DNA of 41,878 bases. Source: Eubacteriales bacterium. Its GTDB lineage: Bacteria; Bacillota; Clostridia; Oscillospirales; CAG-382. The notes beneath the pieces are model-generated. The model ran no database searches and was not told where the DNA came from. It was given only the letters and a program-made list of their open reading frames with translations. The translations under genes were made by a program, and so were the position numbers. The stretch is taken from contig JAZRRU010000070.1 of the NCBI GenBank assembly GCA_045651025.1, positions 1 through 41,878 on the forward strand, read 5' to 3'. Within the stretch, counting starts at the first letter, position 1, and the number at the start of each line of letters is the position of its first letter. Shown here one piece after another: positions 4,443-35,090 of this stretch.

Positions 4443-5092
4443 AGGTTTTAATAACGGGAACTTCTCAGGGAATCGGACTTGCGGTTGCGGAGTATTTTCT
4501 GAAATCGGGTCACACGGTCATCGGCATCGACCGTCAGGATTCGACGATAGAAAACAGCTCGTACACCCACTATAAATGCGATGTGCGCGATAGGGAAAAC
4601 CTTCCCGAAATTGACGGAGTTGAAATTCTTATCAACAACGCGGGCACTCAAAACGAGGACGATATCGAAATCAACCTCAAAGCGCCTATCTTCATAACCG
4701 AAAAATACGGCGTTCAGAATAAAATAAAATCTATCCTCAACGTCGGCTCTGCGAGCGCGCATACGGGCTCGGAATTCCCCGAATATTGCGCGAGCAAGGG
4801 CGGAATCCTTTCTTATACGAAAAACGTGGCAAAACGCGTTGCCGCTTTTGGCGCAACGTGTAATTCGCTCGATCCGGGCGGTGTTGTAACCCCTCTCAAC
4901 GAGTGCGTTATGAACGATCCTGCGCTTTGGAACAGAATAATGGACGAGACACCCTTGAGACGCTGGGCAACCGCCGAGGAGATTGCCGAATGGGCGTATT
5001 TCCTCACCGTTACGAACAAATTCTGCACGGGACAGAATATCCTCGTCGACGGCGGCGAATCGATCAACCACAAATTCATCTGGAACGAATAA
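4439..5092 (+). CDS. SDR family (short-chain dehydrogenase/reductase) oxidoreductase
   Basis: TGTSQGIG cofactor motif, NNAG, and the catalytic S...YCASK (YxxxK). A 4-nt ATGA overlap with the upstream gene suggests translational coupling. Confidence 0.8.
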   Translation: MKVLITGTSQGIGLAVAEYFLKSGHTVIGIDRQDSTIENSSYTHYKCDVRDRENLPEIDGVEILINNAGTQNEDDIEINLKAPIFITEKYGVQNKIKSILNVGSASAHTGSEFPEYCASKGGILSYTKNVAKRVAAFGATCNSLDPGGVVTPLNECVMNDPALWNRIMDETPLRRWATAEEIAEWAYFLTVTNKFCTGQNILVDGGESINHKFIWNE

Positions 5093-5095
5093 TAA

Positions 5096-5129
5096 AAAAG
5101 CACTTATGACGTGAATCATAAGTGCTTTT
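5096..5129. terminator. bidirectional terminator between convergent genes
   Basis: 14-bp perfect hairpin AAAAGCACTTATGA-CGTGAA-TCATAAGTGCTTTT, flanked by A- and T-runs. It lies between the SDR stop (5092) and the ligase stop (5134). Confidence 0.8.
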
Positions 5130-5133
5130 CATT

Positions 5134-7434
5134 TTATCCGTTAACCTTTTCGAGGTCTTTTTTGCGGATTTCGACACGTCTGACCTTACCGCTGATGGTC
5201 TTCGGGAGCTCGTCGACAAATTCGACGATTCTCGGGTATTTGTAGGGTGCGGTGTGTGTCTTGACGTATTCCTGAATCTCTTTTTTGAGCTCGTCCGTGC
5301 CGACGGTGTTCTTCGTGAGCACGATCGTCGCCTTTACGATCTGACCGCGTACCTCGTCGGGAACGGGAGTGATGGCACATTCAAGAACGTAGGGAAGCTC
5401 CATGATAACGCTTTCGATCTCGAACGGTCCGATACGGTAACCCGACGACTTGATAACGTCGTCGATACGTCCGACGTACCAGAGATAACCGTCCTCGTCC
5501 ATCGTCGCCTGGTCGCCCGTGTGGTAATAACCGTCATACCATGCTTCGTTCGTCTTTTCCTCGTCGAGGTAATAGCCGATGAAGAGTCCGCAGGGAACGT
5601 TTTCGCTCGTGCGGATGCAGATTTCGCCCGCGTCGCCCGTCTTGCATTCGTTTCCGTCGGGATCGAGGATAACGACGTCATAGAGGGGGCTGGGCTTACC
5701 CATAGAGCCGAGCTTCGAAGTCGAGCCGACGAAGTTTGCAATCGAGAGAGTGGTCTCTGTCTGACCGTAACCCTCCATGATAGTCAGTCCCGTTGCTTTC
5801 TTGAACTGGTTGAAAACCTCGGGGTTGAGCGCTTCGCCCGCGGTCGTAGCGTATTCTATCGAAGAAAGATCGTATTTCGAGAGGTCTTCCTTGATGAAGA
5901 AGCGGTACATCGTGGGGGGCGCACAGAAGGTCGTGATGTTGTACTTCTTGAAAAGGGGAAGGATGTCGTCGGAGTGGAATCTGTCGAAGTCGTATGTGAA
6001 AATACCTGCCTCGCAGAGCCACTGACCGTAGAGCTTGCCCCAGAGCGCTTTGCCCCATCCCGTGTCGGAGATCGTGAAATGAAGTCCGTCGGGGTTTACG
6101 TTGTGCCAATATTTCGCGGTCGTATAATGACCGAGCGCGTATTTGTAAGAGTGTGTCGCGATTCTCGGATATCCCGTCGTGCCCGAGGTGAAGAGCATGA
6201 GCATCGGGTCGTTTCCGCAGGGAGTGTTCTCGTTGCGGAAGTAATGGGTGCTGAAACGCTCCATTTCGACGTTGAAGTCGTACCAACCGTCTTTCGTTCC
6301 GCCGACGAGTATCTTCTTGATCTCGGGGAACTCGCTTGCCGCCTTTTCCGCTTCGGCGGATACGCTGCCGTCAGCGGTGCAGACGATTGCTTTAACTCCG
6401 GCTGCTTTGTATCTGTAACTAAAGTCGTGCTCGACGAGCTGGTTCGTCGCGGGAATCGCGATCGCGCCGATCTTGTGAAGCGCGAGCATACAGAACCAGA
6501 ACTGATAGTGACGCTTGAGGACGAGCATAACCGTGTCGCCCTTTTTGATTCCGAGCGATTCGAAGTAGTTCGCCGTCTTTGCGGAGTAGCGCTTCATATC
6601 GTTGAACGTGAATCTTCTTTCGGACTTGTCGTTGCCGACCCACATCATCGCGAGCTTGTCGGGATTCTTCTCGGCGATAGCGTCAACACAGTCAAAAGCA
6701 AAGTTGAACTTGTCTTCGTTCTTGAACTTGATTCCGTTGAAAACGCCCTGCTCGTCAAGCGTCGTTTCAACAAAATTGTCTGCGACGGTCTTGACGTTCG
6801 AGTCCGCTTTTTTGGCTTTCGCGCCAATAAACGGTGCTTCGGGGTAGGACTCCGCAAAATCGCCGTCCTGCCGGTTGAGAACGACCGCCTGGAACTCGCA
6901 TCCGCCCTCGCTCACCGCGATCATACCGTGAGGAATAATACTGTTGTAGAATATCGAGTCGCCCTCGTTGAGAACGCTGATATGATTGCCGACCTGAACC
7001 TTGAGCGAGCCCTTTACGATAACGTCAAACTCCTGACCGTTGTGGGAGTTGAGCTTGATAGGTGCGTTCTGCTCGGATTCCATGTAGGGGAGCTTTACGA
7101 GGAACGGCTCGGCGAGCTTGTCCTTGAACTTCGGTGCAAGGTTGTAGTAAACGCCTGCCTGCTTCTTGATTATTTCAAGTCCTTCGCCTTTTCTCGTGAT
7201 CGCAAAAGAAGTAAGCGTCGTGCTCGTACCCTCGATAATATCGACGACCTCGACGTTACACGCTTTTGCGCATTTATAAATAAAAGTAAAACTGAAATCG
7301 GTCTCGCCCTGCTCGAGAAGACGATAGTCCTCAAGCGTAACGCCCGTGAGGGCTGCGAGCTCTTCCTGCGAATAGCCCTTTGCCTCACGCAAGCCCTTGA
7401 TACGGCTTGCAACCTCTTTCAAATTGATTTCCAT
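5134..7434 (-). CDS. fusion protein: XRE-type HTH + cupin domain + medium-chain-type acyl-CoA synthetase (ANL adenylating enzyme)
   Basis: The start is taken at MEINLKEV (ATG 7434) with a GGAAGGAG RBS; the ORF-track start at 7524 lies inside the T-box terminator. Domains: aa ~5-60 HTH (GYSQEELAALTGVTLEDYRLLEQG), aa ~100-187 cupin (G-x-E-F...GD...PHG), aa ~240-766 ligase. Ligase motifs: TSGTTGYPR, YGQTE, YHTGD, GRIDDVIKSSGYRIGPFEIE, ISGKVRR. Confidence 0.8.
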   Translation of the reverse strand: MEINLKEVASRIKGLREAKGYSQEELAALTGVTLEDYRLLEQGETDFSFTFIYKCAKACNVEVVDIIEGTSTTLTSFAITRKGEGLEIIKKQAGVYYNLAPKFKDKLAEPFLVKLPYMESEQNAPIKLNSHNGQEFDVIVKGSLKVQVGNHISVLNEGDSIFYNSIIPHGMIAVSEGGCEFQAVVLNRQDGDFAESYPEAPFIGAKAKKADSNVKTVADNFVETTLDEQGVFNGIKFKNEDKFNFAFDCVDAIAEKNPDKLAMMWVGNDKSERRFTFNDMKRYSAKTANYFESLGIKKGDTVMLVLKRHYQFWFCMLALHKIGAIAIPATNQLVEHDFSYRYKAAGVKAIVCTADGSVSAEAEKAASEFPEIKKILVGGTKDGWYDFNVEMERFSTHYFRNENTPCGNDPMLMLFTSGTTGYPRIATHSYKYALGHYTTAKYWHNVNPDGLHFTISDTGWGKALWGKLYGQWLCEAGIFTYDFDRFHSDDILPLFKKYNITTFCAPPTMYRFFIKEDLSKYDLSSIEYATTAGEALNPEVFNQFKKATGLTIMEGYGQTETTLSIANFVGSTSKLGSMGKPSPLYDVVILDPDGNECKTGDAGEICIRTSENVPCGLFIGYYLDEEKTNEAWYDGYYHTGDQATMDEDGYLWYVGRIDDVIKSSGYRIGPFEIESVIMELPYVLECAITPVPDEVRGQIVKATIVLTKNTVGTDELKKEIQEYVKTHTAPYKYPRIVEFVDELPKTISGKVRRVEIRKKDLEKVNG

Positions 7435-7480
7435 TGTTGTTTGCTCCTTCCGTTTCTGTTGATTCGGATTTGAATAAAAC

Positions 7481-7766
7481 AAAAAAGACTCGTCCCAAAG
7501 AAAACTTTGAGACGAGTCATTCAACTCGCGGTACCACTCAAATTGCGAACACGATGATTCGCCACCTTACGGGCTCAATCAAGCCCTTGCTTTCACGCAG
7601 CAATACGGAAGGAACCTAATTAACGTTCGTTGTTCAGCCCTCCAACTCGGAAGTGATGGGTCATTGGAAAGCTCTGTCATTGGCTCGCAGCAACCGCCAA
7701 CTCTCTCAAAACTCGGCAATCCGACCGTCTTCGTCATAGTTGTTCATTATATTCAAATTTCATTGT
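7481..7766 (-). promoter_or_regulatory. T-box riboswitch leader, probable Ile (AUC) specifier
   Basis: Minus-strand RNA features:
- K-turn context UGAC...CGAG.
- AGAGAG bulge (7701-7706).
- Distal loop GGUUGCUGCGAG.
- T-box motif GAGUGGUACCGCGAG (7527-7539).
- Terminator GACUCGUC-N16-GACGAGUC plus U6 (7481-7518).
The specifier loop is non-canonical. The best reading is CCC-AUC-A next to the basal helix GAAG/CUUC (AUC at 7655-7657). Confidence 0.8.
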
Positions 7767-7771
7767 AACGC

Positions 7772-7800
7772 ATTATACTCGTTTATAACACTATTGTCAA
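7772..7800 (-). promoter_or_regulatory. consensus sigma-A promoter for the Ile T-box/ligase unit
   Basis: Minus strand reads TTGACA (7800-7795), 17-nt spacer, TATAAT (7777-7772). Confidence 0.75.
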
Positions 7801-7848: not shown

Positions 7849-9132
7849 TCAAATGCATGCGAGCGCCTGTTCGATGTCTGCGATAATGTCAACCTTGTCC
7901 TCAAGACCGCAGGAAAGGCGAATAAGATCGGGAGCAACGCCCGCCGCCTTGAGTTCGGCGTCGTTCATCTGACGGTGAGTTGCGTTTGCGGGATGCAAGC
8001 AGCAGGTCTTCGAGTCCGCAACGTGCGTTTCGATCGATGCGAGCTTGAGGTTCTTCATGAACTTCTCCGCAGCCGTTCTTCCGCCGTCAACGCCGAACGA
8101 AATTACACCGCAGGAGCCGTTGGGAAGATATTTCTGACCGAGAGTATAGTTCTTGTCGTCCTCAAGACCGCAATAGCGTACCCATGTGATCTTCGGATGC
8201 TTCTTGAGGTATTCGGCAACCGCCTGCGCGTTTTCGCAATGACGCGCCATTCTTACCTCAAGACTTTCAAGCCCGAGGTTGATGAGATATGCGTTCTGGG
8301 GCGATTGGATCGCGCCGAGATCGCGCATGAGCTGTGCGGTTGCTTTCGTGATATACGCACCCTCGAGACCGAATCTTTCGGTATAAGTAACGCCGTGATA
8401 GCTTTCGTCGGGAGTGCAAAGTCCGGGGAACTTGTCGGGATATTTCGTCCAGTCAAATTTGCCGGAATCTACGATGCATCCGCCGACACCGCTTGCGTGA
8501 CCGTCCATATATTTCGTCGTGGAGTGAATTACGATATCTGCGCCCCATTCGATCGGACGGCAGTTGATGGGTGTTGCAAACGTGTTGTCGATAATAAGCG
8601 GTACGCCGTGACTGTGCGCCGCTTTTGCAAAGCGTTCGATGTCAAGCACATCGAGCGCGGGGTTTGCAATCGTTTCGCCGAAAACTGCTTTCGTGTTCGG
8701 ACGGAAAGCGTTTTCGAGCTCCTCGTCCGAGCAGTCGGGAGCAACGAACGTAAATTCGATGCCCATTCTCTTCATAGTAACCGAGAAGAGGTTGAACGTT
8801 CCGCCGTAGATCGCGGACGAACAAACGACGTGGTCACCGCAGGACGCGATGTTGAAGACGCTGTAGAACGAAGCCGCCTGACCGCTCGAGGTCAGCATCG
8901 CCGCGCTACCGCCTTCAAGCGCCGCAATACGAGCCGCAACGCAGTCGTTCGTGGGGTTCTGCAATCTGCTGTAAAAATATCCCGAGGCCTCGAGGTCAAA
9001 AAGCTTGCCCATCTCCTCGCTCGTATCGTATTTGAAGGTAGTGCTCTGATAAATAGGAATCTGACGGGGCTCGCCGTTTTTGGGAGTATAGCCCGCCTGA
9101 ATACATTTTGTACCGATTTTATAGTTGTTCAT
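7849..9132 (-). CDS. metY: O-acetylhomoserine sulfhydrylase-type PLP enzyme (Cys/Met metabolism family)
   Basis: 427 aa with family hallmarks: YSRLQNPT, SSGQAA, the PLP-lysine context HSTTKYMDGH, and C-terminal IRLSCGLED. A GAGG RBS precedes it, and only 17 nt separate it from the upstream gene. Confidence 0.9.
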   Translation of the reverse strand: MNNYKIGTKCIQAGYTPKNGEPRQIPIYQSTTFKYDTSEEMGKLFDLEASGYFYSRLQNPTNDCVAARIAALEGGSAAMLTSSGQAASFYSVFNIASCGDHVVCSSAIYGGTFNLFSVTMKRMGIEFTFVAPDCSDEELENAFRPNTKAVFGETIANPALDVLDIERFAKAAHSHGVPLIIDNTFATPINCRPIEWGADIVIHSTTKYMDGHASGVGGCIVDSGKFDWTKYPDKFPGLCTPDESYHGVTYTERFGLEGAYITKATAQLMRDLGAIQSPQNAYLINLGLESLEVRMARHCENAQAVAEYLKKHPKITWVRYCGLEDDKNYTLGQKYLPNGSCGVISFGVDGGRTAAEKFMKNLKLASIETHVADSKTCCLHPANATHRQMNDAELKAAGVAPDLIRLSCGLEDKVDIIADIEQALACI

Positions 9133-9149
9133 TATATTTACCTCACGAT

Positions 9150-11609
9150 CTACTTTTTGAGTCCAAGCATTTCGATGGATTCATCACGCATTTTGTATTT
9201 GAGGATCTTACCTGCGGCATTCATCGGGAACTGATCGACGAAAACGAAGTATCTCGGAACCTTGTGACGCGCGATATACGCGTTTCCGAACTCCTTCATC
9301 TCGGCTTCGTCCGCCGTTTCACCTTTGTGAAGAATAACCCATGCACAGCATTCCTCACCGTATCTTTCGTCCGGAACGCCGACGCCCTGAACGTCGCGAA
9401 CCTTCGGGTTTGTAAGATAAAATTCTTCGATCTCGCGGGGATAGAGGTTCTCGCCGCCGCGGATGATCATATCCTTGAGTCGGCCTGTGATCTTGTAATA
9501 TCCGTCGGGAGTTCTGCAAGCGATGTCGCCCGAATGGAGCCATCCGTCTGCATCGATCGCCTGCGCGGTTGCCTCGGGCATTTTGTAATATCCCTTCATG
9601 ATGTTAAAACCGCGTGCAACGAACTCGCCGCTTTCGCCGTCGGGAAGCTCCGAACCCGTTTCGGGATCGATGATCTTGCATTCAACTCCGGGGAACGCGC
9701 TTCCGACCGTCTCAACACGGTGATCAAGGTCTTCGTTAACCTCGCCCATCGTGCATCCGGGCGCCGCTTCGGTCTGACCGTAGACGGAAATTATCTCGCG
9801 CATGTTCATTTCAACGGCGGCGCGGCGCATCAGGTCCGCGGGACAGTTTGCACCTGCCATGATTCCCGTTCTCATGTATGAAAAATCGGGTTTTTCAAAA
9901 TCCTTGTGGTTGAACATCGCGATGAACATCGTCGGAACACCGTTGAAGCAGGTGATTCTTTCGTCGTTAACGCAAGCGAGCGACGATTTCGGCGAGAAAT
10001 AGGGGATGGGACAGAGCGTACCGCCGTGAGTCATCATCGAGGTCATCGAGAGAACCATGCCGAAGCAGTGGAACATCGGAACCTGAATCATCATGCGGTC
10101 TGCGGTCGAGAGGTCCATTCTGTCGCCGATGATCTTGCCGTTGTTGACGATATTTCTGTGGGTAAGCATAACGCCCTTCGGGAATCCCGTCGTACCCGAG
10201 GTGTACTGCATGTTGCATACGTCGTCGGGCTTTACGAGAGAAGCGCGTCTGCGAACCTCTTCACGCGGAACGAGCGAAGCGCGCGAGAGCATCTGCTCCC
10301 AGTTAAGACATCCGTCCATATTAAATCCAACCGTAACGACGTTACGGAGGAAGGGGAGATTCTTCGAGTAAAGGGGCTTGCCGGGGGTGAGATTCTTGAG
10401 CTCGGGACAGAGCTCGCTGATGATCTCTTTATAGTTAATATCCTTGCAGTCCTCGATCATAACGAGCGTGTGGGTGTCGGACTGACGAAGGAGATATTCG
10501 ATCTCGTGTATCTTGTATGCAGTGTTGACCGTAACGAGAACCGCGCCGATCTTCGTGGTTGCCCAGAACGTGACGTACCATTGAGGCACGTTCGTTGCCC
10601 AGACCGCAACGTGATCGCCCGCTTTTACGCCGAGCGAGATAAGTGCCGCGGCACATTCGTCAACGTCTCGACGGAACTGCTCGTAGGTTCGTGTGTAGTC
10701 AAGCGTAGGGTATTTGAACGCATACTGGTCGGGGTAATTCTTGCACATCGTGTCAAGAACGTCCGAGAACGTCGCGTCAATAAGGTCGTATTTTTTCCAG
10801 ACGTAGGTGCCGGTTTTTGCGCGGTTATAGTACGCGCGGTCAAAATCCTTTTTTTCGCGATTGAGCGACGAAATATAGTTTGCAAAATGAGTAAGAACGA
10901 TGTCCGCATCGTTGATCTCGTCGTTCCACGCCGCGCAGATAAATCCCTCGAAGTTAAGCGAAGAGAGCGCGTTGATAAGATTTTCGACGGGAAGCTCGCC
11001 CTCGCCGATAAGAACCGTTTTACCGTCCTTCATATCGCCGAGACGAACGTACTTTATGTACGCGCCGAGAACCTTGATCGTAGTTTCAGCCGTTTCACCC
11101 GCGCCGAAGTAAGTTCCTCTTACGTTCCAGCAGGCACCGATAACGGCAGACGAGAAAAAGTTGATTATGTCAATAACGTTTTGAGTATCCGAAAGAAAAC
11201 CGACCGTTTCGAGAAGAATATTTACGTCGCAATCCTCGGCACGCTTGATGGCGGGCGCGAGCTTTTCCTTCAAAACGTCGAAAGAAACCTCTTTTTCAAC
11301 GCGCACGATAACGTTCGAAACGCCCGAGACAGCCGCCATATCGACGTATTTCGTGATTGCTTCGGCGTTCGCCTCGTCGGATTCGATTGAGTAGGGGTAG
11401 TTAAGTGCGGAAACCGAAAGATTTCGGTTGATGAGCTTTCTTTTCGCGTCGGAAACGCGGTCACGGCGGAGAATACTGTCGTGATGCTGGTTGCGTTCTT
11501 TTATCGCATCGTATATCTCAAATCCCGAAAAGCCGTAGTCGTATGCATAACGGCAGGTATCGAGAAACGAGGGCCGATTCACATATTTTGTTGAAAATAC
11601 GATTTTCAT
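9150..11609 (-). CDS. fusion protein: xylose-isomerase-like TIM-barrel domain + acyl-CoA ligase (ANL family)
   Basis: aa 1-~250 resemble the AP-endonuclease-2/sugar-phosphate-isomerase barrel (NILLETVG, YVRLGDMKDG..GEGELP, FEGFICAAWNDE). aa ~260-819 carry YTSGTTGFPKGVMLTH, YGQTE, WLHSGD, GRLKDMIIRGGENLYPREIE and AAGKILK. The start lies 2 nt after the stop of the upstream gene. Confidence 0.8.
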   Translation of the reverse strand: MKIVFSTKYVNRPSFLDTCRYAYDYGFSGFEIYDAIKERNQHHDSILRRDRVSDAKRKLINRNLSVSALNYPYSIESDEANAEAITKYVDMAAVSGVSNVIVRVEKEVSFDVLKEKLAPAIKRAEDCDVNILLETVGFLSDTQNVIDIINFFSSAVIGACWNVRGTYFGAGETAETTIKVLGAYIKYVRLGDMKDGKTVLIGEGELPVENLINALSSLNFEGFICAAWNDEINDADIVLTHFANYISSLNREKKDFDRAYYNRAKTGTYVWKKYDLIDATFSDVLDTMCKNYPDQYAFKYPTLDYTRTYEQFRRDVDECAAALISLGVKAGDHVAVWATNVPQWYVTFWATTKIGAVLVTVNTAYKIHEIEYLLRQSDTHTLVMIEDCKDINYKEIISELCPELKNLTPGKPLYSKNLPFLRNVVTVGFNMDGCLNWEQMLSRASLVPREEVRRRASLVKPDDVCNMQYTSGTTGFPKGVMLTHRNIVNNGKIIGDRMDLSTADRMMIQVPMFHCFGMVLSMTSMMTHGGTLCPIPYFSPKSSLACVNDERITCFNGVPTMFIAMFNHKDFEKPDFSYMRTGIMAGANCPADLMRRAAVEMNMREIISVYGQTEAAPGCTMGEVNEDLDHRVETVGSAFPGVECKIIDPETGSELPDGESGEFVARGFNIMKGYYKMPEATAQAIDADGWLHSGDIACRTPDGYYKITGRLKDMIIRGGENLYPREIEEFYLTNPKVRDVQGVGVPDERYGEECCAWVILHKGETADEAEMKEFGNAYIARHKVPRYFVFVDQFPMNAAGKILKYKMRDESIEMLGLKK

Positions 11610-11611: not shown

Positions 11612-13000
11612 TTAGTTCTCCTCAAAAACGATCTTGTTGAGGGCGTTGATGTACGCTCTGATGCTTGCCGCAACGATGTCTGTGGAGATTCCGTTGCCCG
11701 AGTAGAGTTTTCCGTTGTTGCGGAGGCGTACGAGAGCCGAACCGAGTGCCTCTTTGCCTTCGGTTACCGACTGAACCTGAAAATCGTCGAGCTCGTAGTG
11801 ATAACCGACGCACTGCTCGATCGCGCGGAACGCCGAGTCGATAGGACCGTCACCCGTGCTGACGCCCGAGATGATCTCGCCGTCGCATTTGAGAGTTACC
11901 TGTGACATAGAGCTAGTGAGGTTACTGCTGTTAGTGGTATAACTCTCGAGATGATAGGTCGAGGGTGCCTGCATCGCAGAGCTTGCGATAAGCGCCTCGA
12001 GCTCCTTCGCACCGACTGCACCCTTCTTCTCGCAGACCTGCATGAGCGCTTTGTGAACGTTTCCGCAGTCGGACTCGTTGAGGTCATATCCGAGAAGCTG
12101 AGCCGCCTGTGCAACCTGCGCGATAGAGCTGTCGGAATCGAGAAGTATCTTCTTCTTTTCGCTTACGGTTTCGTCGGATTCGTAGGATTCGTGGTTTATG
12201 CTTGCAAGCATATCTTCGATGCTTGCGTGAATTTTCGTGTTGTTGAGGTCGGTGCCTGCATCAAGCTGGGATGCGCAAATATTCACCGCATCCGCGATCT
12301 CGCCAGTGAGAAGCACGTTCTTTCCCGCCATCGCGCATTTGAGTCCGTCTGCACCGTTTTTGATAGCCGCAACCGCCGACGCAACCGCCATGTTGATGCG
12401 GTCGGAAACCTGAACGTAAACAGGAGCGTCGATTTCTGCTTTGACCTTCATGACAAGATCGGCGATCTCGTCGGGGAGGGAAATACCCGCATCGTCGCAG
12501 AGCGTGATAACGCCCGCGCCGTTTTCTTTTGCTTCCCTTGCCGCAGAAATAAGGAACTCAACGTCGGCTCTCGTCGCGTCGAGCGCGCAGAATTCAACGT
12601 CTGCACAGAGTTCTTTTGCCGCTTTTACGAGCTCTGCGATCTTGAGGAGCATTTTTTCGGCTTTTACGTGGTAGGTATATTCCATCAAAACGGTCGAAAC
12701 GGGAAGCGCAACCTGAAGTCGGGGATTCTTCGCTTCCTTGATGCATTCGAAAGCGTTCTTCACGTCGTCAGCCGTAAAACCGACGGGAATCGCAACGATT
12801 GCGTTCTTTACGTTTTGACAAATAGTCTTGTATATAATAGCATCCTCGCGAAGATTCTTCACGGGCGCGAGCTCAATTGCGTTCGCACCGATTCTGTCAG
12901 CGCAAACGGCGATTGCGGTCTTTTCACGGAAAAGAAGCGCGATCTCGCGATCCTCGGAGAGCTTTTTGAGAGTAATGTCGGAAATGATTATGTTTTTCAT
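11612..13000 (-). CDS. LeuA (2-isopropylmalate/citramalate synthase)-like protein with degenerate catalytic motifs and a retained LeuA_dimer-type C-terminal domain
   Basis: The overall layout is collinear with IPMS. The C-terminus VTEGKEALGSALVRLRNNGKLYSGNGISTDIVAASIRAYINALNKI matches the regulatory domain. The N-terminal DTTLRDGEQ motif reads DITLKKLSE, and HxHNDxG reads QVSDRIN. Start chosen at ATG 13000 (AAAGGA RBS); ATG 13018 lacks an SD. Confidence 0.75.
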   Translation of the reverse strand: MKNIIISDITLKKLSEDREIALLFREKTAIAVCADRIGANAIELAPVKNLREDAIIYKTICQNVKNAIVAIPVGFTADDVKNAFECIKEAKNPRLQVALPVSTVLMEYTYHVKAEKMLLKIAELVKAAKELCADVEFCALDATRADVEFLISAAREAKENGAGVITLCDDAGISLPDEIADLVMKVKAEIDAPVYVQVSDRINMAVASAVAAIKNGADGLKCAMAGKNVLLTGEIADAVNICASQLDAGTDLNNTKIHASIEDMLASINHESYESDETVSEKKKILLDSDSSIAQVAQAAQLLGYDLNESDCGNVHKALMQVCEKKGAVGAKELEALIASSAMQAPSTYHLESYTTNSSNLTSSMSQVTLKCDGEIISGVSTGDGPIDSAFRAIEQCVGYHYELDDFQVQSVTEGKEALGSALVRLRNNGKLYSGNGISTDIVAASIRAYINALNKIVFEEN

Positions 13001-13050
13001 TTTTCTGGTTCCTTTCATTGTGGGAGCGAAAATATTTTTGAAGCTTCAAC

Positions 13051-13325
13051 AAAAAAACGTTTCCGTCTCCTTGTCGATCCAAAGAGACGAAAACGTCAAA
13101 AAAACATTTCCGCGGTACCACTCTTTTTCATCCGCTTCGGATGCACTCAGATGCAATCACATCTATGCTCTGTAACGGGAGCACCCGTCTGCCCTTACTT
13201 CGAAAATTCACGGCAGACGCTCCGCGGTGAGTTCTGCGAACCTTCCCCGATGCCTCGCACCAAACGGCATCTCTCTCAAGGCGAAAGTATTTCGCGTACT
13301 ATTCCGCATCACAGCGTTTAATATT
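13051..13325 (-). promoter_or_regulatory. T-box riboswitch leader, Leu (CUC) specifier
   Basis: Minus-strand RNA features:
- Basal helix GCGG/CCGC.
- Specifier loop AAUAGUA / AGAA-CUC-A (CUC at 13229-13231).
- AGAGAG bulge.
- Distal loop GGUGCGAG.
- T-box GAGUGGUACCGCG (13111-13123).
- Terminator CGUUUUCGUCUC-N14-GAGACGGAAACG plus U7 (13051-13095). Confidence 0.88.
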
Positions 13326-13382: not shown

Positions 13383-14936
13383 TTAACAATTTTCGTTCAG
13401 GCATTCAAAAATCTCATCAACCTCTTTCGCGTTGCGCTTCTTCGTGAATGCGCTTACGATCGGCACGACGATGAACGAAACAGCCATCGCACAAACACCC
13501 ATCTCTGGCGATTTTGCCGCTGCGGATGCAAAATTCGAGTTAAGCGTGATAACGAGCGTCGAAATACCGACGGTGAGAAGTCCTGCGACCATACCTGCGT
13601 ATGCACCGGCCTTCGTGATCTTCTTCGAAAAGAGTCCCCAGATGTAGGGTCCGATGAAGCAACCCGAAACGACGCCCCACGAGAACGACATAAGACTTAC
13701 GATGATCGGAATGTCCTGCGTTGCAAAAATGAACGAGCACGCAACGAACGCGAGACAGAAAAGACGGGTGAGAAGCATTTGGTTGTCGGGATTTATCGTC
13801 TTTTTGCTGACAGTGGGGATGAAGTCGACTGCAACCGCCGACGCCGAAGTAAGAACGATCGACTGAAGCGTTGACATCGAAGCGGAGATCAACAGAATTA
13901 TAATAAGCGCAAGAAGAATGATCCCAAAAGTTCCGTTTGTCAGAACCGTCATAAGTACGCTCGGTATTACCGAGTCAATACCGCCCTCGGGGAGTTGACC
14001 TCCAAGAATAAGACGCGACGTACTGCCGATGAGGTATGCACCACAGCCGATAACCGCACAGAAAATCGTCGAGATGATCGTTCCGCGCTTGATTGCCGCC
14101 GTGTCCTTGATCGCATAGAACTTGCCGATCATCTGCGGGAGCCCCCACGTACCGAAGCTCGTGAGCATGATGTTGAAGCACAAGAACCTGAAAGCGTTAC
14201 CGCCGAAGATGTTGGTAAGCTGGCTTCCCGTGACGGGATTCGGGTCGTCGGGAAGCGGCTTGAAGCTACCGAGATTTTCCAAGAGCCCCGAAATACCGCC
14301 GACGCTTTCGTGGTTAAGCACGACGAAAACAAGGCAAACAACGCCTGCAATCATAATAACGCCCTGAATAAGGTCGGTGTAAGCCGTCGCGACGTATCCG
14401 CCCGCAACAAGGTAAACCGCAGTAAGACAAGCGATCATAAGCATCCAAACCCAGGTTTCAACTCCGGGGAATACTGCGTTGAAGATCGAACCGAGCCCCT
14501 TGTAAACAGCGGCTGTATAGGGTACGAGAAACACGAAGATAACGACCGAAGCCAAAAGCTTCATCTTTTTCGAGGAGTATCTCTTCTCGAAATATTCGGG
14601 CATGGTTTTTGCGTTGAGCTTTTTCGTGATCTTTCTCGTGCGGTTCGCAAACAAAAGCCACGAAAGGAGACAACCGAGAACTGCGTTGCCAACACCGATC
14701 CAGATACTTCCGAGCCCGATGTTCCAACCGTGCTGACCTGCGTATCCGACAAAAACGACCGCCGAAAAATAGGTCGTGCCGTATGCGAACGCCGTCGACC
14801 AAGCGCCGATGTTTCGCCCTCCTATAAGAAAATTATCAAGAGTTTTTGATTTGCCGTAACTTATACAACCGACAAGTGCCATCAAAACTGCATATATGCA
14901 GAGACCTATGATTGTGTAAAGCTGTGCATCTGTCAT
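13383..14936 (-). CDS. sodium:solute symporter (SSS) family transporter
   Basis: 517-aa polytopic protein with an SSS-like N-terminal pattern (FLIGGRNIGAWSTAFAYGTTYFSAVVFVGYAG) and about 13 hydrophobic segments. An AGGAGG RBS precedes it, and a Tyr T-box lies directly upstream. Confidence 0.85.
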   Translation of the reverse strand: MTDAQLYTIIGLCIYAVLMALVGCISYGKSKTLDNFLIGGRNIGAWSTAFAYGTTYFSAVVFVGYAGQHGWNIGLGSIWIGVGNAVLGCLLSWLLFANRTRKITKKLNAKTMPEYFEKRYSSKKMKLLASVVIFVFLVPYTAAVYKGLGSIFNAVFPGVETWVWMLMIACLTAVYLVAGGYVATAYTDLIQGVIMIAGVVCLVFVVLNHESVGGISGLLENLGSFKPLPDDPNPVTGSQLTNIFGGNAFRFLCFNIMLTSFGTWGLPQMIGKFYAIKDTAAIKRGTIISTIFCAVIGCGAYLIGSTSRLILGGQLPEGGIDSVIPSVLMTVLTNGTFGIILLALIIILLISASMSTLQSIVLTSASAVAVDFIPTVSKKTINPDNQMLLTRLFCLAFVACSFIFATQDIPIIVSLMSFSWGVVSGCFIGPYIWGLFSKKITKAGAYAGMVAGLLTVGISTLVITLNSNFASAAAKSPEMGVCAMAVSFIVVPIVSAFTKKRNAKEVDEIFECLNENC

Positions 14937-14961: not shown

Positions 14962-15232
14962 TAAAAAGCCCCCGTATTCCAAAATGAATACAGAGGACGA
15001 GAAAACCCGTGGTACCACCTCTATTTACCGTTCTCTCGCGATCACGGCCTTTCCGAGTGCCAATCAGCACCCTCGTTCTGTGACGGGAACTCCCGTTGCG
15101 GCCTACTCGGTTCACCCTTTCGGTGCACTGCTCGCAGAATGTATTCAGCAAGAACGTCCCCATTGTCTCGCACCACCCGACAACTCTCTCAAGGCTTCGA
15201 AAATGCCTACTTGTTTCTGCTCAAACGCATTT
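14962..15232 (-). promoter_or_regulatory. T-box riboswitch leader, Tyr (UAC) specifier
   Basis: Minus-strand RNA features:
- Basal helix GCAGAA/UUCUGC.
- Specifier loop ACAAGUA / GAA-UAC-A (UAC at 15141-15143).
- AGAGAG bulge.
- Distal loop GGUGGUGCGAG.
- T-box GGUGGUACCACG (15008-15019).
- Terminator hairpin (14969-14996) followed by a U-rich run. Confidence 0.88.
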
Positions 15233-15238
15233 TTTAGC

Positions 15239-21848: not shown

Positions 21849-23213
21849 TTAAATTTTAGGAAGAGCTTCGATGCTCTTTTTGATTTCGTCGTCGGTGGGG
21901 ACATAGTCGGTCATAGTACCGTTGTTGACCTGCTCGTAAGCGGGCATATCGAAATAACCCGTACCCGTGAGACCAAAGAGAATGACCTTTTCCTCGCCCG
22001 TTTTCTTGCATCTGAGCGCTTCGTCAACTGCGGCTCTGATTGCATGGGAGGATTCGGGCGCAGGGAGAATACCCTCGACCTTCGCGAAAAGCTTCGCCGC
22101 CTCGAAAACCTCGGTCTGCTTGTAGGACGTTGCCTTCATAAGACCGTCGTCATAGAGCTGGGAAACGACCGAGTTCATGCCGTGGTAACGGAGTCCGCCT
22201 GCGTGGCTCGATGCGGGGATGTATTCCGAACCGAGAGTATACATCTTTATGAGAGGAGTCATGTGACCCGTGTCGCCGTAGTCGTATACAAACGAGCCCC
22301 TCGTGAGCGAAGGACAGGACGACGGCTCAACCGCGATAAATTCGGGGTCGTGAGTGCCGTTTATCTTGTCAACGACATAGGGAGCGATAAGTCCTCCGAG
22401 GTTCGAGCCGCCGCCGGCACAGCCGATAACAACGTCGGGATAGATGCCGTATTTATCGAGCGCGGCTTTCGCTTCGAGACCTATGATAGACTGATGAAGA
22501 AGAACGTGGTTCATAACGCTGCCGAGAACGTAACGGCAGTTTTCTGTGTTGATTGCCTTTTCGACCGCCTCGGAAATAGCGCATCCGAGCGAGCCCGTAG
22601 TGTTCGGGAATTTTTCGTTGATTCGTCTGCCAACCTCGGTCGTCATTGAGGGGGAGGGAATTACTTCCGCTCCGAACGTGCGGATAACCTCTCGTCTGTG
22701 GGGCTTCTGCATAGCCGAGCCCTTTACCATAAACACCGTGAGGTCAACGCCGTAGAACGCCGATGCCATCGCGAGCGCCGTGCCCCATTGTCCTGCGCCG
22801 GTTTCGGTCGTGAGCGAGGTTATGCCCTGCTCTTTTGCGTAGTAGACCTGCGCGACGGCGGAGTTGAGCTTGTGCGAGCCCGAGGTGTTTGCGCCCTCGT
22901 ATTTGTAGTAAATATGTGCGGGCGTGCCGAGTGCGCGTTCGAGATGATATGCGCGCGTCGTGGGCGACGGACGGAACATTTTATAGAAATCGATGATACC
23001 CTCGGGGATGTCGATAAAAAGATCGTCCTCGTTAAGCTCTTGTCTTGCAAGCTCGTCGCAGAATACCTTCTGCAACTGCTCAAAGGTCACGGGCTCCTTT
23101 GTGACGGGGTCAAGCATAGGCGCGGGCTTGTTTTTCATAGCGGCGCGGATGTTGAGCCACTGCTTCGGTATCTCGTTTTCCGAAAGAAATATCTTGTAAG
23201 GAATCGTAGACAT
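21849..23213 (-). CDS. trpB: TrpB2-type tryptophan synthase beta-like PLP enzyme
   Basis: 454 aa starting at MSTIPYKI (ATG 23213, AAGGAGA RBS). It has the PLP-lysine context NTSGSHKLNSA, a GGGSN loop and the long TrpB2-style N-terminus. The ORF-track start at 23294 lies inside the T-box. Confidence 0.88.
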   Translation of the reverse strand: MSTIPYKIFLSENEIPKQWLNIRAAMKNKPAPMLDPVTKEPVTFEQLQKVFCDELARQELNEDDLFIDIPEGIIDFYKMFRPSPTTRAYHLERALGTPAHIYYKYEGANTSGSHKLNSAVAQVYYAKEQGITSLTTETGAGQWGTALAMASAFYGVDLTVFMVKGSAMQKPHRREVIRTFGAEVIPSPSMTTEVGRRINEKFPNTTGSLGCAISEAVEKAINTENCRYVLGSVMNHVLLHQSIIGLEAKAALDKYGIYPDVVIGCAGGGSNLGGLIAPYVVDKINGTHDPEFIAVEPSSCPSLTRGSFVYDYGDTGHMTPLIKMYTLGSEYIPASSHAGGLRYHGMNSVVSQLYDDGLMKATSYKQTEVFEAAKLFAKVEGILPAPESSHAIRAAVDEALRCKKTGEEKVILFGLTGTGYFDMPAYEQVNNGTMTDYVPTDDEIKKSIEALPKI

Positions 23214-23241
23214 TTTTTGATTCTCCTTTGACTTATTCAAG

Positions 23242-23492
23242 AAAAAACCGCAAGATATACCAAACCTTTGAGGCGATATATCTCGCGGTGCCACTCAAAA
23301 TTATACTCAGCGGGTACGTAAATACCCCTCCCGTTGACGCAGGGATTCTTGCGGCGCGGCATACTTGCAAAAACTTTCCGCCTTGCTCCTCTCGGGTCCA
23401 TTCGACGAGAACTTACCTGTCGGACTTCCACCGTCTCCGACTCGCTGAAGGCAGTAATCTTGCTTACTACTCCCGATCACAGGATTTTTAAA
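23242..23492 (-). promoter_or_regulatory. T-box riboswitch leader, Trp (UGG) specifier
   Basis: Minus-strand RNA features:
- Basal helix UCGGG/CCCGA.
- Specifier loop AGUAGUA / GAA-UGG-A (UGG at 23398-23400).
- Distal loop GGUGGAAG.
- T-box GAGUGGCACCGCGAGA (23284-23296).
- 12-bp terminator CCGCGAGAUAUA/UAUAUCUUGCGG plus U6 (23242-23288), overlapping the T-box motif. Confidence 0.88.
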
Positions 23493-26950: not shown

Positions 26951-27027
26951 GGTTCGGTAGTTCAGTTGGTTAGAATGCCGCCCTGTCACGGCGGAGGTCG
27001 TGGGTTCGAGTCCCATCCGAATCGCCA
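26951..27027 (+). tRNA. tRNA-Asp (GTC), CCA encoded
   Basis: 77-nt cloverleaf: acceptor GGTTCGG/CCGAATC, anticodon loop CTGTCAC, T-arm GTGGG-TTCGAGT-CCCAT. Confidence 0.92.
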
Positions 27028-27069
27028 ACTTTTTTCAATCCTTTCCGTTTCAGCTGCTCCGCAAGACGT

Positions 27070-27145
27070 GCGGATTTAGCTCATTTGGTAGAGCGCCACC
27101 TTGCCAAGGTGGAGGTAGCGGGTTCGAGCCCCGTAATCCGCTCCA
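27070..27145 (+). tRNA. tRNA-Gly (GCC), CCA encoded
   Basis: 76-nt cloverleaf: acceptor GCGGATT/AATCCGC, anticodon stem CCACC/GGTGG with loop TTGCCAA. Confidence 0.92.
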
Positions 27146-27169
27146 GACTTGATCCGAAAGGATCGGTAT

Positions 27170-27243
27170 GGCGCCATAGCCAAGCGGTAAGGCAGAGGTC
27201 TGCAACACCTTTATCCCCAGTTCGATTCTGGGTGGCGCCTCCA
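27170..27243 (+). tRNA. tRNA-Cys (GCA), CCA encoded
   Basis: 74-nt cloverleaf: acceptor GGCGCCA/TGGCGCC, anticodon loop CTGCAAC, T-arm CCCAG-TTCGATT-CTGGG. Confidence 0.9.
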
Positions 27244-27279
27244 AGAAAAATACAACTTCATATATAAAACGTCTTTGAT

Positions 27280-27355
27280 GCTGATGTGGCACAGGTGGTA
27301 GCGCACATCCTTGGTAAGGATGAGGTCATGAGTTCGAGTCTCATCATCAGCTCCA
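27280..27355 (+). tRNA. tRNA-Thr (GGT), CCA encoded
   Basis: 76-nt cloverleaf: acceptor GCTGATG/CATCAGC, anticodon stem CATCC/GGATG with loop TTGGTAA. There is one mismatch in the D-stem. Confidence 0.85.
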
Positions 27356-27431
27356 GCGGATTTAGCTCATTTGGTAGAGCGCCACCTTGCCAAGGTGGAG
27401 GTAGCGGGTTCGAGCCCCGTAATCCGCTCCA
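27356..27431 (+). tRNA. tRNA-Gly (GCC), second identical copy
   Basis: Sequence identical to 27070-27145. It starts on the nucleotide after the CCA of tRNA-Thr. Confidence 0.92.
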
Positions 27432-27436
27432 AAAAT

Positions 27437-27513
27437 GGTTCGGTAGTTCAGTTGGTTAGAATGCCGCCCTGTCACGGCGGAGGTCGTGGGTTCGAGTCCC
27501 ATCCGAATCGCCA
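27437..27513 (+). tRNA. tRNA-Asp (GTC), second identical copy
   Basis: Sequence identical to 26951-27027. Confidence 0.92.
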
Positions 27514-27540
27514 TTGCTTTCCCAATCGGGAAAGCGATAT

Positions 27541-27616
27541 GCCTCTGTAGCTCAGTTGGTAGAGCAGGAGACTGAAAATCTCCGTGTCATTGGTTCAATT
27601 CCGATCGGAGGCACCA
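27541..27616 (+). tRNA. tRNA-Phe (GAA), CCA encoded
   Basis: 76-nt cloverleaf: acceptor GCCTCTG/CGGAGGC (one G-U pair), anticodon stem GGAGA/TCTCC with loop CTGAAAA. Confidence 0.9.
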
Positions 27617-29758: not shown

Positions 29759-31678
29759 CTATTTTAACATATTCACGGTTGTGTTCATGCCTTTTCCGCC
29801 TCCGCTCATGTTCCCGCCGGAGGAAGAGAGACGCAGAATCTTGAGATATCTGTCGACGTTCCCCTGTGGGATTCCGAGCTTTTGACAGCATTTTTTGAAC
29901 TCACTTTCGTCCTGCGCTGATGCGTAGATATAGTCAAGCTGTTTTTCGATCGCGACATCCTTCGCGGAGGTTTTCGCCGTTCTTTCATCCGCGCCCTGAA
30001 CGATGAGCTTGTTGTACTGCTCGCCGTAGATTTTTTCATAATGCTCTTTTGCATCGTAAGAAATGACCTGAACTTTCATGTCATCCGTGCTCGAGCTCGT
30101 GTATCCGTAGGATTTGAGCACGAGAAGAAGATCGTTAAGGTAATCCTCGTTCAGGTCGTAATTCTCACTGAGGTCAAGCAGGTATTTGTTCACGTAATAC
30201 ATCTGCTTGTCGCCATTGAGCGAGGTCTTTCCTCCGCTTGCGCTCGAAACGAGCTGTTTGCCGAGGTCTTTTGCGGTAATGCTCGGTGCGTAACCTTTGT
30301 TTTCGGTCGATTGGTTCTTGTTCGAGGAATTGCCCGACGAATTGTTTGAAGATGAATTTCCGTTCTGCGTCTTTTTTGCGTTCAGCTCAGCGTCGAGCAT
30401 CTGCTTTTTCATCTCCCAGCCGAGAAGCTCAAGCTCCTTCTTTGCACGAATCTCCGCTTCGTATTCCTCTTGCTTTGCCGCAAGCTCGGAAGCGCTTTTT
30501 TCTTTTGCCCACTGAAGCTCCTGCTGTTTCATCTCAAGCTCTGCTTGGAGCTGTTCCATGTCGGCTTTTATCTGTGCTTGGTATTTGTCCTTTTCGGCGC
30601 TTCTCTCTGCGGAATTTTCGAGCTGCTGTTGAATGAGCTCTTTGTTCTTCATTTCGAGCTCTGCTTGGAGCTTTTCCATATCCGCCTTGATCTGCGCTTC
30701 ATATTTTGCCTTGTCGGCGTCGCGGTTCGCAACGGCGTTTTCCTTTTCCCATTGGAACTCTTTGTCCCTCTGCGAAAGCTCTGCCTGAAGTCGTTCCATC
30801 TGTGCTCGGAGCTCTGCTTCGTATTTTGTCTTTTCTGCATCGCGGTTGGAAGAAGCGTTTTCCTTTTCCCATTGAAGCTCCTGCTGTTTCATCGCAAGCT
30901 CTGCTTGAAGCTTTTCCATATCCGCCTTGATCTGCGCTTCGTATTTTGCTTTTTCAGCAGCACGGTTAGAAACGTCATTCATTTTTTCCCATTGGAATTC
31001 TTTGTCCCTCTGTGAGAGCTCTGCCTGGAGACGTTCCATCTGTGCGCGGAGCTCGGCTTCGTATTTCGCTCTTTCCGCGTCGCGATTTGAAGAAGCGTTT
31101 TCTTTTTCCCATTGAAGCTCTTTATCCCTCTGCGAAAGCTCGTTCTGGTGGCGTTCCATTTCCGCCGCGAGAGAGGATTCTGCAAGATATTTTTCTTGCG
31201 CAAGCTTTGCGTCATCCTGCTCTTTTTGAAGCTCCATTCCCGCAATTTCCGCGTTGAGCTTGTTGCGTCTGTCGTGATAGTCGCTGATTTTTGCGGCTTG
31301 ATCGAACGCAAGCTCGTTTTTCTTGTCAGCAAACTGAAGCTCGATATCCTTCATGTTCGAGTTCTTTTTGCTTGCAAGCTCCGAAAAACGGTTCCCGAGA
31401 ATAATTCCCGAGTTGAGCTTCGCCTGCGCGGTCTCACCCGAAAATCCGAGTCCCCTTGCCGCGAGTGTATTAAGGGTGTTGCGCTCCTCGCGAGCGGTGT
31501 CGCTGTATGCTTGGTTCCTGTCGGCGCGGTATTGCGTTTCAATTTCGTTTTTTGCGTTCGTATGCTGATTCGAGAGGTTGCTGAGCGCGTTTTTATAGAG
31601 CTCGTTGAGCTTTTTCTCGTCTTCAGAATAACTCGCAAGCGCCGTTTTTAGGTTGTTGATTGTGTTATTGTAAGCCAT
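29759..31678 (-). CDS. phage-like 639-aa coiled-coil repeat protein (tail fibre/needle, or tape-measure/ejection-like)
   Basis: The central 245 aa are six tandem 40-aa repeats (M-E-R/K-L-Q-A-E-L-x-x-[RK]-x-K-E-[FL]-Q-W-E-K-E-N...K-Y-E-A-[EQ]-[LI]-[RK]-A). A Ser/Asn/Gly linker and a globular C-terminal domain follow. It overlaps the upstream gene by 14 nt. Confidence 0.7.
   Translation of the reverse strand: MAYNNTINNLKTALASYSEDEKKLNELYKNALSNLSNQHTNAKNEIETQYRADRNQAYSDTAREERNTLNTLAARGLGFSGETAQAKLNSGIILGNRFSELASKKNSNMKDIELQFADKKNELAFDQAAKISDYHDRRNKLNAEIAGMELQKEQDDAKLAQEKYLAESSLAAEMERHQNELSQRDKELQWEKENASSNRDAERAKYEAELRAQMERLQAELSQRDKEFQWEKMNDVSNRAAEKAKYEAQIKADMEKLQAELAMKQQELQWEKENASSNRDAEKTKYEAELRAQMERLQAELSQRDKEFQWEKENAVANRDADKAKYEAQIKADMEKLQAELEMKNKELIQQQLENSAERSAEKDKYQAQIKADMEQLQAELEMKQQELQWAKEKSASELAAKQEEYEAEIRAKKELELLGWEMKKQMLDAELNAKKTQNGNSSSNNSSGNSSNKNQSTENKGYAPSITAKDLGKQLVSSASGGKTSLNGDKQMYYVNKYLLDLSENYDLNEDYLNDLLLVLKSYGYTSSSTDDMKVQVISYDAKEHYEKIYGEQYNKLIVQGADERTAKTSAKDVAIEKQLDYIYASAQDESEFKKCCQKLGIPQGNVDRYLKILRLSSSGGNMSGGGKGMNTTVNMLK
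30434..31168 (-). repeat. in-frame tandem repeat, 120 bp x ~6 (alternating two 120-bp variants, so a ~240-bp super-repeat)
   Basis: Codons for aa 171-415 of the 639-aa protein. Met recurs at aa 174/214/254/294/334/374, and Trp at aa 190/230/270/310/390. Confidence 0.85.
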
Positions 31679-33407: not shown

Positions 33408-33787
33408 GCATATACCTCCGTTATCGAAACGGTTCGCGCTTTACCGAACCTTATCGCTCGCTCGCGTGCGTCGTGATAGAGCTTGTGAAAGTTTGCGGCA
33501 AGCTCGTCGTCCTCACCGAGAAGCAACAAGCGCGAAAGCCCGTAGGGAAGTATACCCGACGAAACGACGTCACTGCAAACGAGCTTGTCGTCGATCGACA
33601 GAATCGATTCGACACGATGCTCGATACGGCGGATTCTTGAGTCGATTTCCGCGTTCTCCGCAAGAAGTATGTTTATCAGCGAAACCGCTCTTTGCTGCAT
33701 GTCGGAAACGTCGTTCGGAATACTTCCGTCTGACTTCCTTAGACCGCATAGGTCAAGCGAAATTTCAAAAAGTTCTTTTCCTGTCAT
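33404..33787 (-). CDS. phage-like head-tail adaptor/connector candidate (127 aa)
   Basis: AAAGGAGGA RBS. A small helical protein located between the head and tail-like genes. No motif recognised. Confidence 0.45.
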   Translation of the reverse strand: MTGKELFEISLDLCGLRKSDGSIPNDVSDMQQRAVSLINILLAENAEIDSRIRRIEHRVESILSIDDKLVCSDVVSSGILPYGLSRLLLLGEDDELAANFHKLYHDARERAIRFGKARTVSITEVYA

Positions 33788-33822
33788 TTTGTCCTCCTTT
33801 GTATTTCTTATTTTAAAATGAA

Positions 33823-33851: not shown

Positions 33852-33856
33852 GGACA

Positions 33857-34231: not shown

Positions 34232-34248
34232 ATTAAGTTCTCCTTTCG

Positions 34249-35079: not shown

Positions 35080-35090
35080 ATTATTACCTC

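Follow-up and report, generated by a model that had tools for sequence, protein, structure and literature searches.

The window analysed here is a stretch of 41,878 nucleotides (nt) of DNA from Eubacteriales bacterium (assembly GCA_045651025.1, contig JAZRRU010000070.1, positions 1 to 41,878). Its minus strand carries a gene for a 766-amino-acid protein in which a helix-turn-helix (HTH) and a cupin domain are fused to an acyl-coenzyme A (acyl-CoA) synthetase, and the gene is preceded by its own promoter and by a T-box leader with the isoleucine (Ile) specifier AUC. Comparison of sequences suggests, with a probability that we put at roughly 0.6, that the gene, which is monocistronic, encodes a short branched-chain carboxylate-CoA ligase with 2-methylbutyrate as the likeliest substrate, and that it would be induced by uncharged tRNA-Ile. 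Each part is of a known kind, and the combination, in which a ligase of the Macs type has an obligate HTH-cupin partner and stands under an Ile T-box, appears to be undescribed: a literature search, with one key T-box survey outside its reach, returned no T-box linked to a CoA ligase and no description of an HTH-cupin-ligase fusion.

The leader and its elements are located as follows.

7505..7746, minus strand: T-box leader, matching the full RF00230 model (1-219) at 89.0 bits (local E 5e-20)
7655..7657, minus strand: specifier triplet AUC (Ile), followed by A at 7654 and then by the CUUC strand of the basal helix
7533..7536, minus strand: UGGU in the bulge of the T-box; GAGUGGUACCGCG matches the consensus of the T-box sequence and is invariant in the leaders
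7481..7518, minus strand: intrinsic terminator with a 14-bp stem and a U tract (7518..7487 in the terminator search), which competes with the antiterminator and is conserved in homologues

The leader comprises, in order, Stem I (K-turn, specifier loop, AG bulge and distal loop), Stem II, Stem IIA/B, Stem III, and the T-box sequence with the antiterminator. The gathering threshold of RF00230 is 93 bits, so an Rfam scan at that threshold, which reported three other T-boxes in the window, missed this one. Orthologous leaders scored 109.9, 103.8, 99.7, 97.2 and 96.8 bits, above the threshold, and 88.5 bits. In the covariance-model alignment, the specifier loop lacks the AGUA/GAA elements of the S-turn, with AGUA deleted and GAC in place of GAA; the S-turn is replaced by a helix, and the score is therefore slightly low. 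Its absence is a variant feature and is not decisive for membership in the T-box family.

The specifier was compared among 74 upstream leaders, taken from loci encoding proteins that are 84-91% identical. The AUC columns were invariant in 74/74, whereas the one or two bases on the 5′ side were C or U and the base on the 3′ side was mostly A, with a minority of C or G. An RNAalifold consensus of these leaders contained 59 pairs, 31 of them with compensatory changes, and this independent fold agreed with the covariance-model alignment in placing AUC-A against the GAAG/CUUC helix. This basal helix of Stem I covaries (AU in 57 leaders, GC in 17), and AUC lies one base 5′ of it. Directly above is a second covarying 4-bp helix, GGUC/GACC (columns 25-28/97-100), with a small loop whose 3′ strand reads [C/U]-AUC-[A/C/G]. 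The alternative specifiers CAU/UAU and UCA/UCC/UCG were rejected, as the bases flanking AUC vary and only AUC is both invariant and correctly spaced from the helix. AUC also occupies the specifier position in six distant leaders (L081, L087, L088, L092, L093 and L094). Judged from the alignments, the assignment of the T-box to Ile may be taken as secure short of experiment. The original prediction had described a complete T-box leader and had read AUC followed by A beside GAAG/CUUC, and both points hold. Its observation that the S-turn is absent was also correct, whereas its view that the Ile assignment is only moderately secure proved too cautious in light of the invariance, the covarying helix and the distant loci.

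The T-box sequence AAUUUGAGUGGUACCGCG is likewise invariant among the leaders, and the antiterminator pairs are predicted by RNAalifold. Both hallmark motifs of T-boxes were found in nearly all 74 leaders, with a variant of one motif in L079. Pairing of the UGGU bulge would be with the 3′-terminal ACCA that an uncharged tRNA presents when its discriminator base is A, which fits tRNA-Ile, yet this feature is not discriminating. The leader thus resembles the RF00230 leaders of other Ile genes in its K-turn, AUC followed by a purine, AG bulge and distal loop, Stems II, IIA/B and III, UGGN bulge, and competing antiterminator and terminator. It differs from them in having, instead of the AGUA/GAA S-turn, a covarying 4-bp helix above a small loop, and in its target, which is an acyl-CoA ligase rather than a synthetase, a biosynthetic operon or a transporter. 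Among the six distant loci, L087 is a fusion in a metagenome-assembled genome (MAG) labelled Fusobacterium sp. JB021. The other five are operons in which the HTH-cupin and ligase genes are split: L081 ([Clostridium] cellulosi type), L088, L092 (Oscillospiraceae MB08-C2-2), L093 (Zongyangia hominis) and L094 (Ligaoa zhengdingensis). In an early survey, which covered two Fusobacteria/Thermotogae genomes, this group was without T-boxes (PMC2494555), and the Fusobacterium-labelled contig may reflect horizontal transfer or mis-binning.

The gene and its signals are located as follows.

7772..7800, minus strand: sigma-70-type promoter, with −35 box TTGACA (7800..7795), −10 box TATAAT (7777..7772) and a 17-nt spacer
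7444..7451, minus strand: ribosome-binding site GGAAGGAG, 9 nt 5′ of the ATG, read from the sequence
5134..7434, minus strand: coding sequence of the 766-amino-acid fusion protein, from the list of open reading frames (ORFs), Pfam and homologues
5095..5130, minus strand: bidirectional terminator, common to the convergent SDR gene, from a terminator search and neighbour annotation

The promoter has 12/12 consensus matches and an A-rich tract upstream of its −35 box. In 75 homologous upstream regions, both hexamers and the A tract are conserved, while the spacer is variable. The ORF list alone gave a longer, TTG-initiated frame (7524..5134, minus strand). We regard the ATG at 7434 as the real start because GGAAGGAG precedes it, the leader terminator lies upstream, and the homologues share that methionine; reading from the TTG would cross the T-box terminator. 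The GAAAGGAG of the ribosome-binding site is kept among homologues. At the other end, the bidirectional terminator closes the gene, which is therefore monocistronic. Pfam domains occur in the ORF in the order HTH_3, Cupin_2, AMP-binding and AMP-binding_C, and the last two make up the ligase.

5185..6681, minus strand: ANL-type acyl-CoA synthetase, with AMP-binding at amino acids 252-622 and AMP-binding_C at 672-750 (Pfam 204 and 77.7 bits)

The ligase carries the motifs FTSGTTGYPR, GYGQTET, YHTGD, GRIDDVIKSSGYRIGPFEIE and PKTISGKVRR, and alignment to the structure 3ETC indicated that the ANL core motifs A3, A5, A7, A8 and A10 are kept, including the catalytic lysine of A10. Its best PDB match was 3ETC itself, Macs of Methanosarcina acetivorans (E 1e-203, ~62% identity over ~524 aligned residues), and its best NCBIfam model was MbcS (NF047394, 456.6 bits). 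Unlike the window protein, neither Macs nor MbcS of S. aureus has an N-terminal HTH-cupin or is reported under a T-box. Macs forms adenylates with C3-C8 acids, and it completed the two-step reaction with 2-methylbutyrate, its preferred substrate and the acid for which a productive thioester is reported (PMC10455477). MbcS is selective for 2-methylbutyrate and isobutyrate, and in S. aureus it serves branched-chain fatty-acid synthesis (PMC10026030). From the 62% identity to Macs and this literature, we infer a preference of the window ligase for 2-methylbutyrate.

If this is correct, transcription would start at the strong, constitutive-looking promoter and normally halt at the T-box terminator; read-through would require uncharged tRNA-Ile to be paired with both the AUC specifier and the UGGU bulge. 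The ligase would convert exogenous 2-methylbutyrate to 2-methylbutyryl-CoA. From this product, a ferredoxin-dependent 2-oxoacid oxidoreductase could form the 2-oxoacid by reductive carboxylation, and a transaminase would complete isoleucine; alternatively, the product could prime anteiso fatty acids and thereby spare isoleucine. The HTH-cupin would most likely act as a second, ligand- or metal-dependent control layer over the ligase. 2-Methylbutyrate is plentiful in rumen and hindgut. Since the 1960s it has been known that anaerobes of the rumen and gut use branched short-chain fatty acids to produce branched-chain amino acids, a route for which the activation-step genes and their control are poorly assigned. 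For a rumen methanogen, the accepted path to isoleucine is the reductive carboxylation of 2-methylbutyrate (PMC2812497). Given the Ile-specific induction and the gut origin of the relatives, activation of 2-methylbutyrate on starvation would be the simplest reading. The Ile-specific T-box in front of a Macs/MbcS-type ligase would then provide a regulatory label for an activation-step gene, and T-box regulons would extend beyond synthetases, biosynthetic operons and transporters.

We compared the gene with homologous loci, taken as the best 80 of at least 583 genome stretches that encode a relative. The proteins of these 80 loci are 84-91% identical and, with few exceptions, cover the full length. 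Several independent MAG projects contributed them, and all are from MAGs of ruminant or other gut Clostridia. The four-domain architecture is present in more than 120 protein clusters at ≥84% identity, and clustering at 50% gave three full-length fusion clusters (83, 55 and 42% identity) together with fragments. An assembly artefact was rejected as the source of the fusion in view of the number of loci, the independence of the projects and the orthology of split and fused forms. Several claims of the original prediction are borne out: a 766-amino-acid ORF joining HTH, cupin and acyl-CoA synthetase, with the Pfam cut-offs of HTH_3 and Cupin_2 passed; a fusion that is genuine; a perfect TTGACA-17-TATAAT promoter; and an intact ligase of a branch in which some members activate short branched acids. 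This is the Macs/MbcS branch, in which 2-methylbutyrate is the preferred substrate of the characterised enzymes, and the window ligase has all core motifs.

A search with the N-terminal 230 amino acids identified stand-alone HTH-cupin proteins of 188-196 amino acids that are ~50% identical. In 6/6 complete contexts, the corresponding gene lay 0-117 nt 5′ of a same-strand gene for an AMP-binding ligase of 546-557 amino acids, with a stop/start overlap in one of them, and a seventh, truncated contig had the same arrangement. These ligases are 55-59% identical to the ligase domain of the window protein. In the reverse search, where unfused ligase orthologues were chosen by ligase similarity only, an HTH-cupin gene was located 2-26 nt upstream in 3/4. 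Since the two genes are adjacent elsewhere, the window protein is the fused form of a conserved two-gene unit. The HTH-cupin thus appears to be an obligate partner of the ligase, encoded by a separate upstream gene in other Oscillospiraceae and fused here. An Ile T-box lies upstream of the HTH-cupin gene in five of nine split units, and the remaining four are without a T-box and apparently co-transcribed with queA-tgt-mntP-HAD genes. Members of the same ligase clade (P0124, P0137, P0129 and P0123) have other fused partners, namely a C-terminal GNAT domain, a C-terminal glyoxalase/VOC domain or an unassigned N-terminal extension of 165 amino acids. The HTH-cupin partner, split or fused, represents a conserved, uncharacterised module, and because cultured carriers exist (Zongyangia hominis, Ligaoa zhengdingensis and [Clostridium] cellulosi), both the pathway and the role of the partner are directly testable.

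Three further observations concern the surroundings of the split units. A gene for a HAD-family hydrolase (~215-224 amino acids) recurs 5′ of the HTH-cupin and ligase unit in L084, L085, L090, L092, L093 and L094, directly before the unit or before the T-box. L084, whose genome carries the split pair, also has a Leu(CUC) T-box (12119..12361, plus strand, 142.6 bits) before another AMP-binding ligase gene. In L091, which contains a lone ligase, two matches resembling Gut-1 RNA (4675..4752, plus strand, and 5704..5781, minus strand) score just under the gathering score and flank the gene 3′ of the ligase.

The role of the HTH-cupin module is less easily assigned. Its two domains are located as follows.

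7243..7401, minus strand: XRE-type HTH domain, amino acids 12-64 (Pfam HTH_3, 37.3 bits, cut-off 23)
6892..7068, minus strand: cupin domain, amino acids 123-181 (Pfam Cupin_2, 34.1 bits, cut-off 27.2)

An AlphaFold2 model of the module had a predicted local distance difference test (pLDDT) score of 85 and consisted of five helices (pLDDT 80-95) and a beta-barrel. In 17/17 fused and free family members, the first 72 residues are net acidic (−2 to −9), and the recognition helix of the HTH reads xE[ED]Y, with a conserved Glu-Asp/Glu. The cupin residues His131, Glu135 and His169 are invariant in the family and form a 2-His-1-Glu set with the H-x3-E...H spacing of the facial triad of HppE; Tyr163, Ser165, Lys145 and Asp159 are further invariants. 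When the model was searched with Foldseek, the top 17 matches were HppE, with 1Y9Q in ninth place as the one exception; Psf4, HEPD and MPnS came next, and the top E was ~4e-14. The nearest curated regulator was PuuR, which aligns across amino acids 9-180 at 24.7 bits against a cut-off of 211.

One explanation, which we hold tentatively and somewhat below even odds, is that the HTH-cupin is an accessory or catalytic domain that does not bind DNA. A metal-dependent cupin would bind isoleucine or another effector and switch the ligase allosterically or, in an alternative form, would act on the substrate or product of the ligase, perhaps as an isomerase or epimerase of a 2-methylacyl compound. The invariant triad with its HppE spacing and the four further invariants point in this direction, as does the identity of the leading structural matches (HppE, Psf4, HEPD and MPnS), which are enzymes with the same HTH-like and cupin layout; HppE was also matched by sequence (E 1.5e-5). 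The acidity of the HTH and the translational coupling or fusion of the partner genes are also consistent with it, and the GNAT and VOC domains fused elsewhere to the ligase clade act on proteins or acyl-CoAs, not on DNA. However, the HppE match has a template-modelling score of only ~0.5 and ~22% identity, Asn replaces the first His of the canonical cupin motif, and many true regulators also retain cupin metal ligands. HppE, HEPD and MPnS use O2 or H2O2 on phosphonates, a misfit with an anaerobic carboxylate context. O2-dependent chemistry is unlikely in a strict anaerobe, and the path from 2-methylbutyrate to its CoA ester has no evident gap for a further reaction to fill.

The other explanation is that of a trigger enzyme, as put forward in the original prediction. 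Here the HTH-cupin would bind DNA and repress or activate genes of branched-chain metabolism, with its affinity set by the cupin or by the acyl-adenylate or acyl-CoA product of the ligase, as in BirA, PutA and BzdR. This is doubtful, and DNA binding by the N-terminal module, judged from its sequence, is itself rather unlikely. Both HTH_3 and Cupin_2 exceed their Pfam cut-offs, the repressor PuuR comes closest among curated relatives over the full length, the HTH weakly matches the BzdR-type family, and 1Y9Q, an annotated though uncharacterised regulator, is among the top fold matches. A regulator beside a ligase is, moreover, a common arrangement, here conserved as the HTH-cupin/ligase pair, and a conserved motif just 3′ of the −10 box (described below) could mark a repressor position. 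Against this, the net charge of the HTH is negative in every member, with acidic residues where DNA contacts are expected, whereas the charge of PuuR is roughly neutral. The motif is non-palindromic, occupies about +5 to +20, and has its sole partner ~290 bp away, past the terminator. In the 75 upstream regions, only the hexamers, the A tract and this motif were conserved, with no palindromic operator around the promoter, and no autoregulatory operator was found there. Several species have an HTH-cupin gene that lacks a separate promoter and either overlaps the ligase gene or directly adjoins it, in the manner of genes for subunits. The curated matches, finally, fall far under their cut-offs, PuuR as given above and the BzdR-type family at 26.4 bits against 204. 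The case for a DNA-binding trigger enzyme is made at the level of Pfam homology, and it is somewhat weakened by the acidic HTH, by the HppE-like triad, by the closest folds, which include enzymes as well as regulators, and by the lack of a conserved palindrome.

BirA makes an acyl-adenylate, as an ANL ligase does, and BzdR senses the CoA ester produced by a neighbouring ligase. The window protein resembles BirA, PutA and BzdR in joining an N-terminal domain of DNA-binding type to an enzyme or enzyme-like domain, but its HTH is acidic, a cupin lies between HTH and enzyme, and the similarity is limited to a generic HTH. With PuuR and other XRE-HTH and cupin repressors it shares domain order and size; PuuR, however, is free-standing, whereas the HTH-cupin here is always paired or fused with a ligase. 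HppE, HEPD, MPnS and 1Y9Q have the same two-domain layout and the H-x3-E...H triad. Less probably, the HTH-cupin/ligase pair is a hitherto unrecognised two-part device: its cupin half, whether a separate protein or fused, would bind a metal or ligand and either gate the 2-methylbutyrate ligase or signal to DNA which acyl-adenylate or acyl-CoA state the ligase is in. Such a device would integrate Ile starvation, through the T-box, and precursor or product status, through the cupin, in one protein, and would constitute a BirA-like ligase-regulator for the salvage of amino acids from fermentation acids.

Several points weigh against the reading of the gene as a ligase for 2-methylbutyrate that is induced on Ile starvation. 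The window T-box falls 4 bits under the Rfam gathering threshold and has no S-turn. The split loci L084, L085, L089 and L090 and the lone ligase L091 are without a T-box, so the link to Ile is not universal. The ligase does not reach the MbcS equivalog cut-off of 850 at 456.6 bits; it is therefore a relative rather than an orthologue, and the specificity of MbcS is not transferable with confidence. No gene for a 2-oxoacid:ferredoxin oxidoreductase was found in the window or beside any homologue examined. In addition, a supply of propionate (via 2-oxobutyrate to Ile) or of a lipid primer would fit the same regulation, as Ile T-box control is compatible with either purpose. That the ligase activates propionate for 2-oxobutyrate, or provides 2-methylbutyryl-CoA as an anteiso primer under Ile scarcity, rather than making Ile from 2-methylbutyrate, nevertheless seems unlikely to us. 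The C3-C8 range of adenylation by Macs (PMC10455477) and the part of MbcS in branched-chain fatty-acid synthesis in S. aureus (PMC10026030) would favour these purposes, but thioester formation by Macs is productive with 2-methylbutyrate (PMC10455477), and T-box regulons otherwise serve to raise the levels of charged tRNA (PMC2494555). The adjacent Leu T-box operon, which contains a second ligase, also suggests a parallel theme of acid-to-amino-acid conversion, in line with the synthesis of Ile from 2-methylbutyrate.

Two complementary motifs flank the T-box.

7750..7760, minus strand: 5′ motif of the leader, AAATTTGAATA(TCAC), consensus AAATTTGAATATCAC, at about +5 to +20 of the transcript and ≥90% conserved
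7468..7476, minus strand: post-terminator motif TATTCAAAT / TTTTGTTTTATTCAAAT, the reverse complement of part of the 5′ motif

Both are conserved far above their surroundings, and they are complementary over 9 bp, with 7 bp more between the A run and the U tract. The two also change together, being both lost in four loci, both altered in L055, and rearranged in L024 and L031. The minimum free energy fold did not contain a helix between them, the duplex energy, calculated for the window sequence alone, was no better than that of shuffled controls, and covariation in the in-register extension of the helix was not significant (0.43 versus 0.41 in permutations). The pair could form a 5′-3′ RNA clamp on read-through transcripts or could be a pair of protein sites.

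Upstream of the ligase gene lies the operon under the Leu(CUC) T-box (13080..13321, minus strand). Its genes, all on the minus strand, encode a LeuA-like protein (11612..13018), an 819-amino-acid ligase fusion (9150..11609) and an O-acetylhomoserine sulfhydrylase-like protein (7849..9132). The 819-amino-acid protein consists of an N-terminal xylose-isomerase-like TIM barrel (AP_endonuc_2) and an acyl-CoA ligase of PRK12583 type, and the pair of LeuA-like and TIM-ligase genes stands directly upstream of the Ile T-box gene in ~18/80 related loci. This operon may be the isovalerate-to-leucine counterpart of the Ile T-box gene. The window also contains a Tyr(UAC) T-box (14990..15234, minus strand) before a sodium:solute symporter gene of PutP/PanF type (13383..14936, minus strand), which could encode a transporter of tyrosine or of an aromatic precursor. 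A Trp(UGG) T-box with a UGGC bulge (23266..23489, minus strand) precedes the gene for a TrpB-like (TrpB2) pyridoxal phosphate enzyme (21849..23294, minus strand), an arrangement that suggests indole salvage. With several T-boxes placed before such genes, the organism would therefore put several precursor-salvage functions under T-box control.

The window contains no tRNA-Ile gene; a cluster of seven tRNA genes (26951..27616, plus strand) comprises Asp, Gly, Cys, Thr, Gly, Asp and Phe. A prophage-like stretch at 29759..38581, in which several large ORFs beside the portal and terminase genes had no Pfam match, encodes a P22-type portal (35614..37347) and a terminase large subunit (37217..38581).

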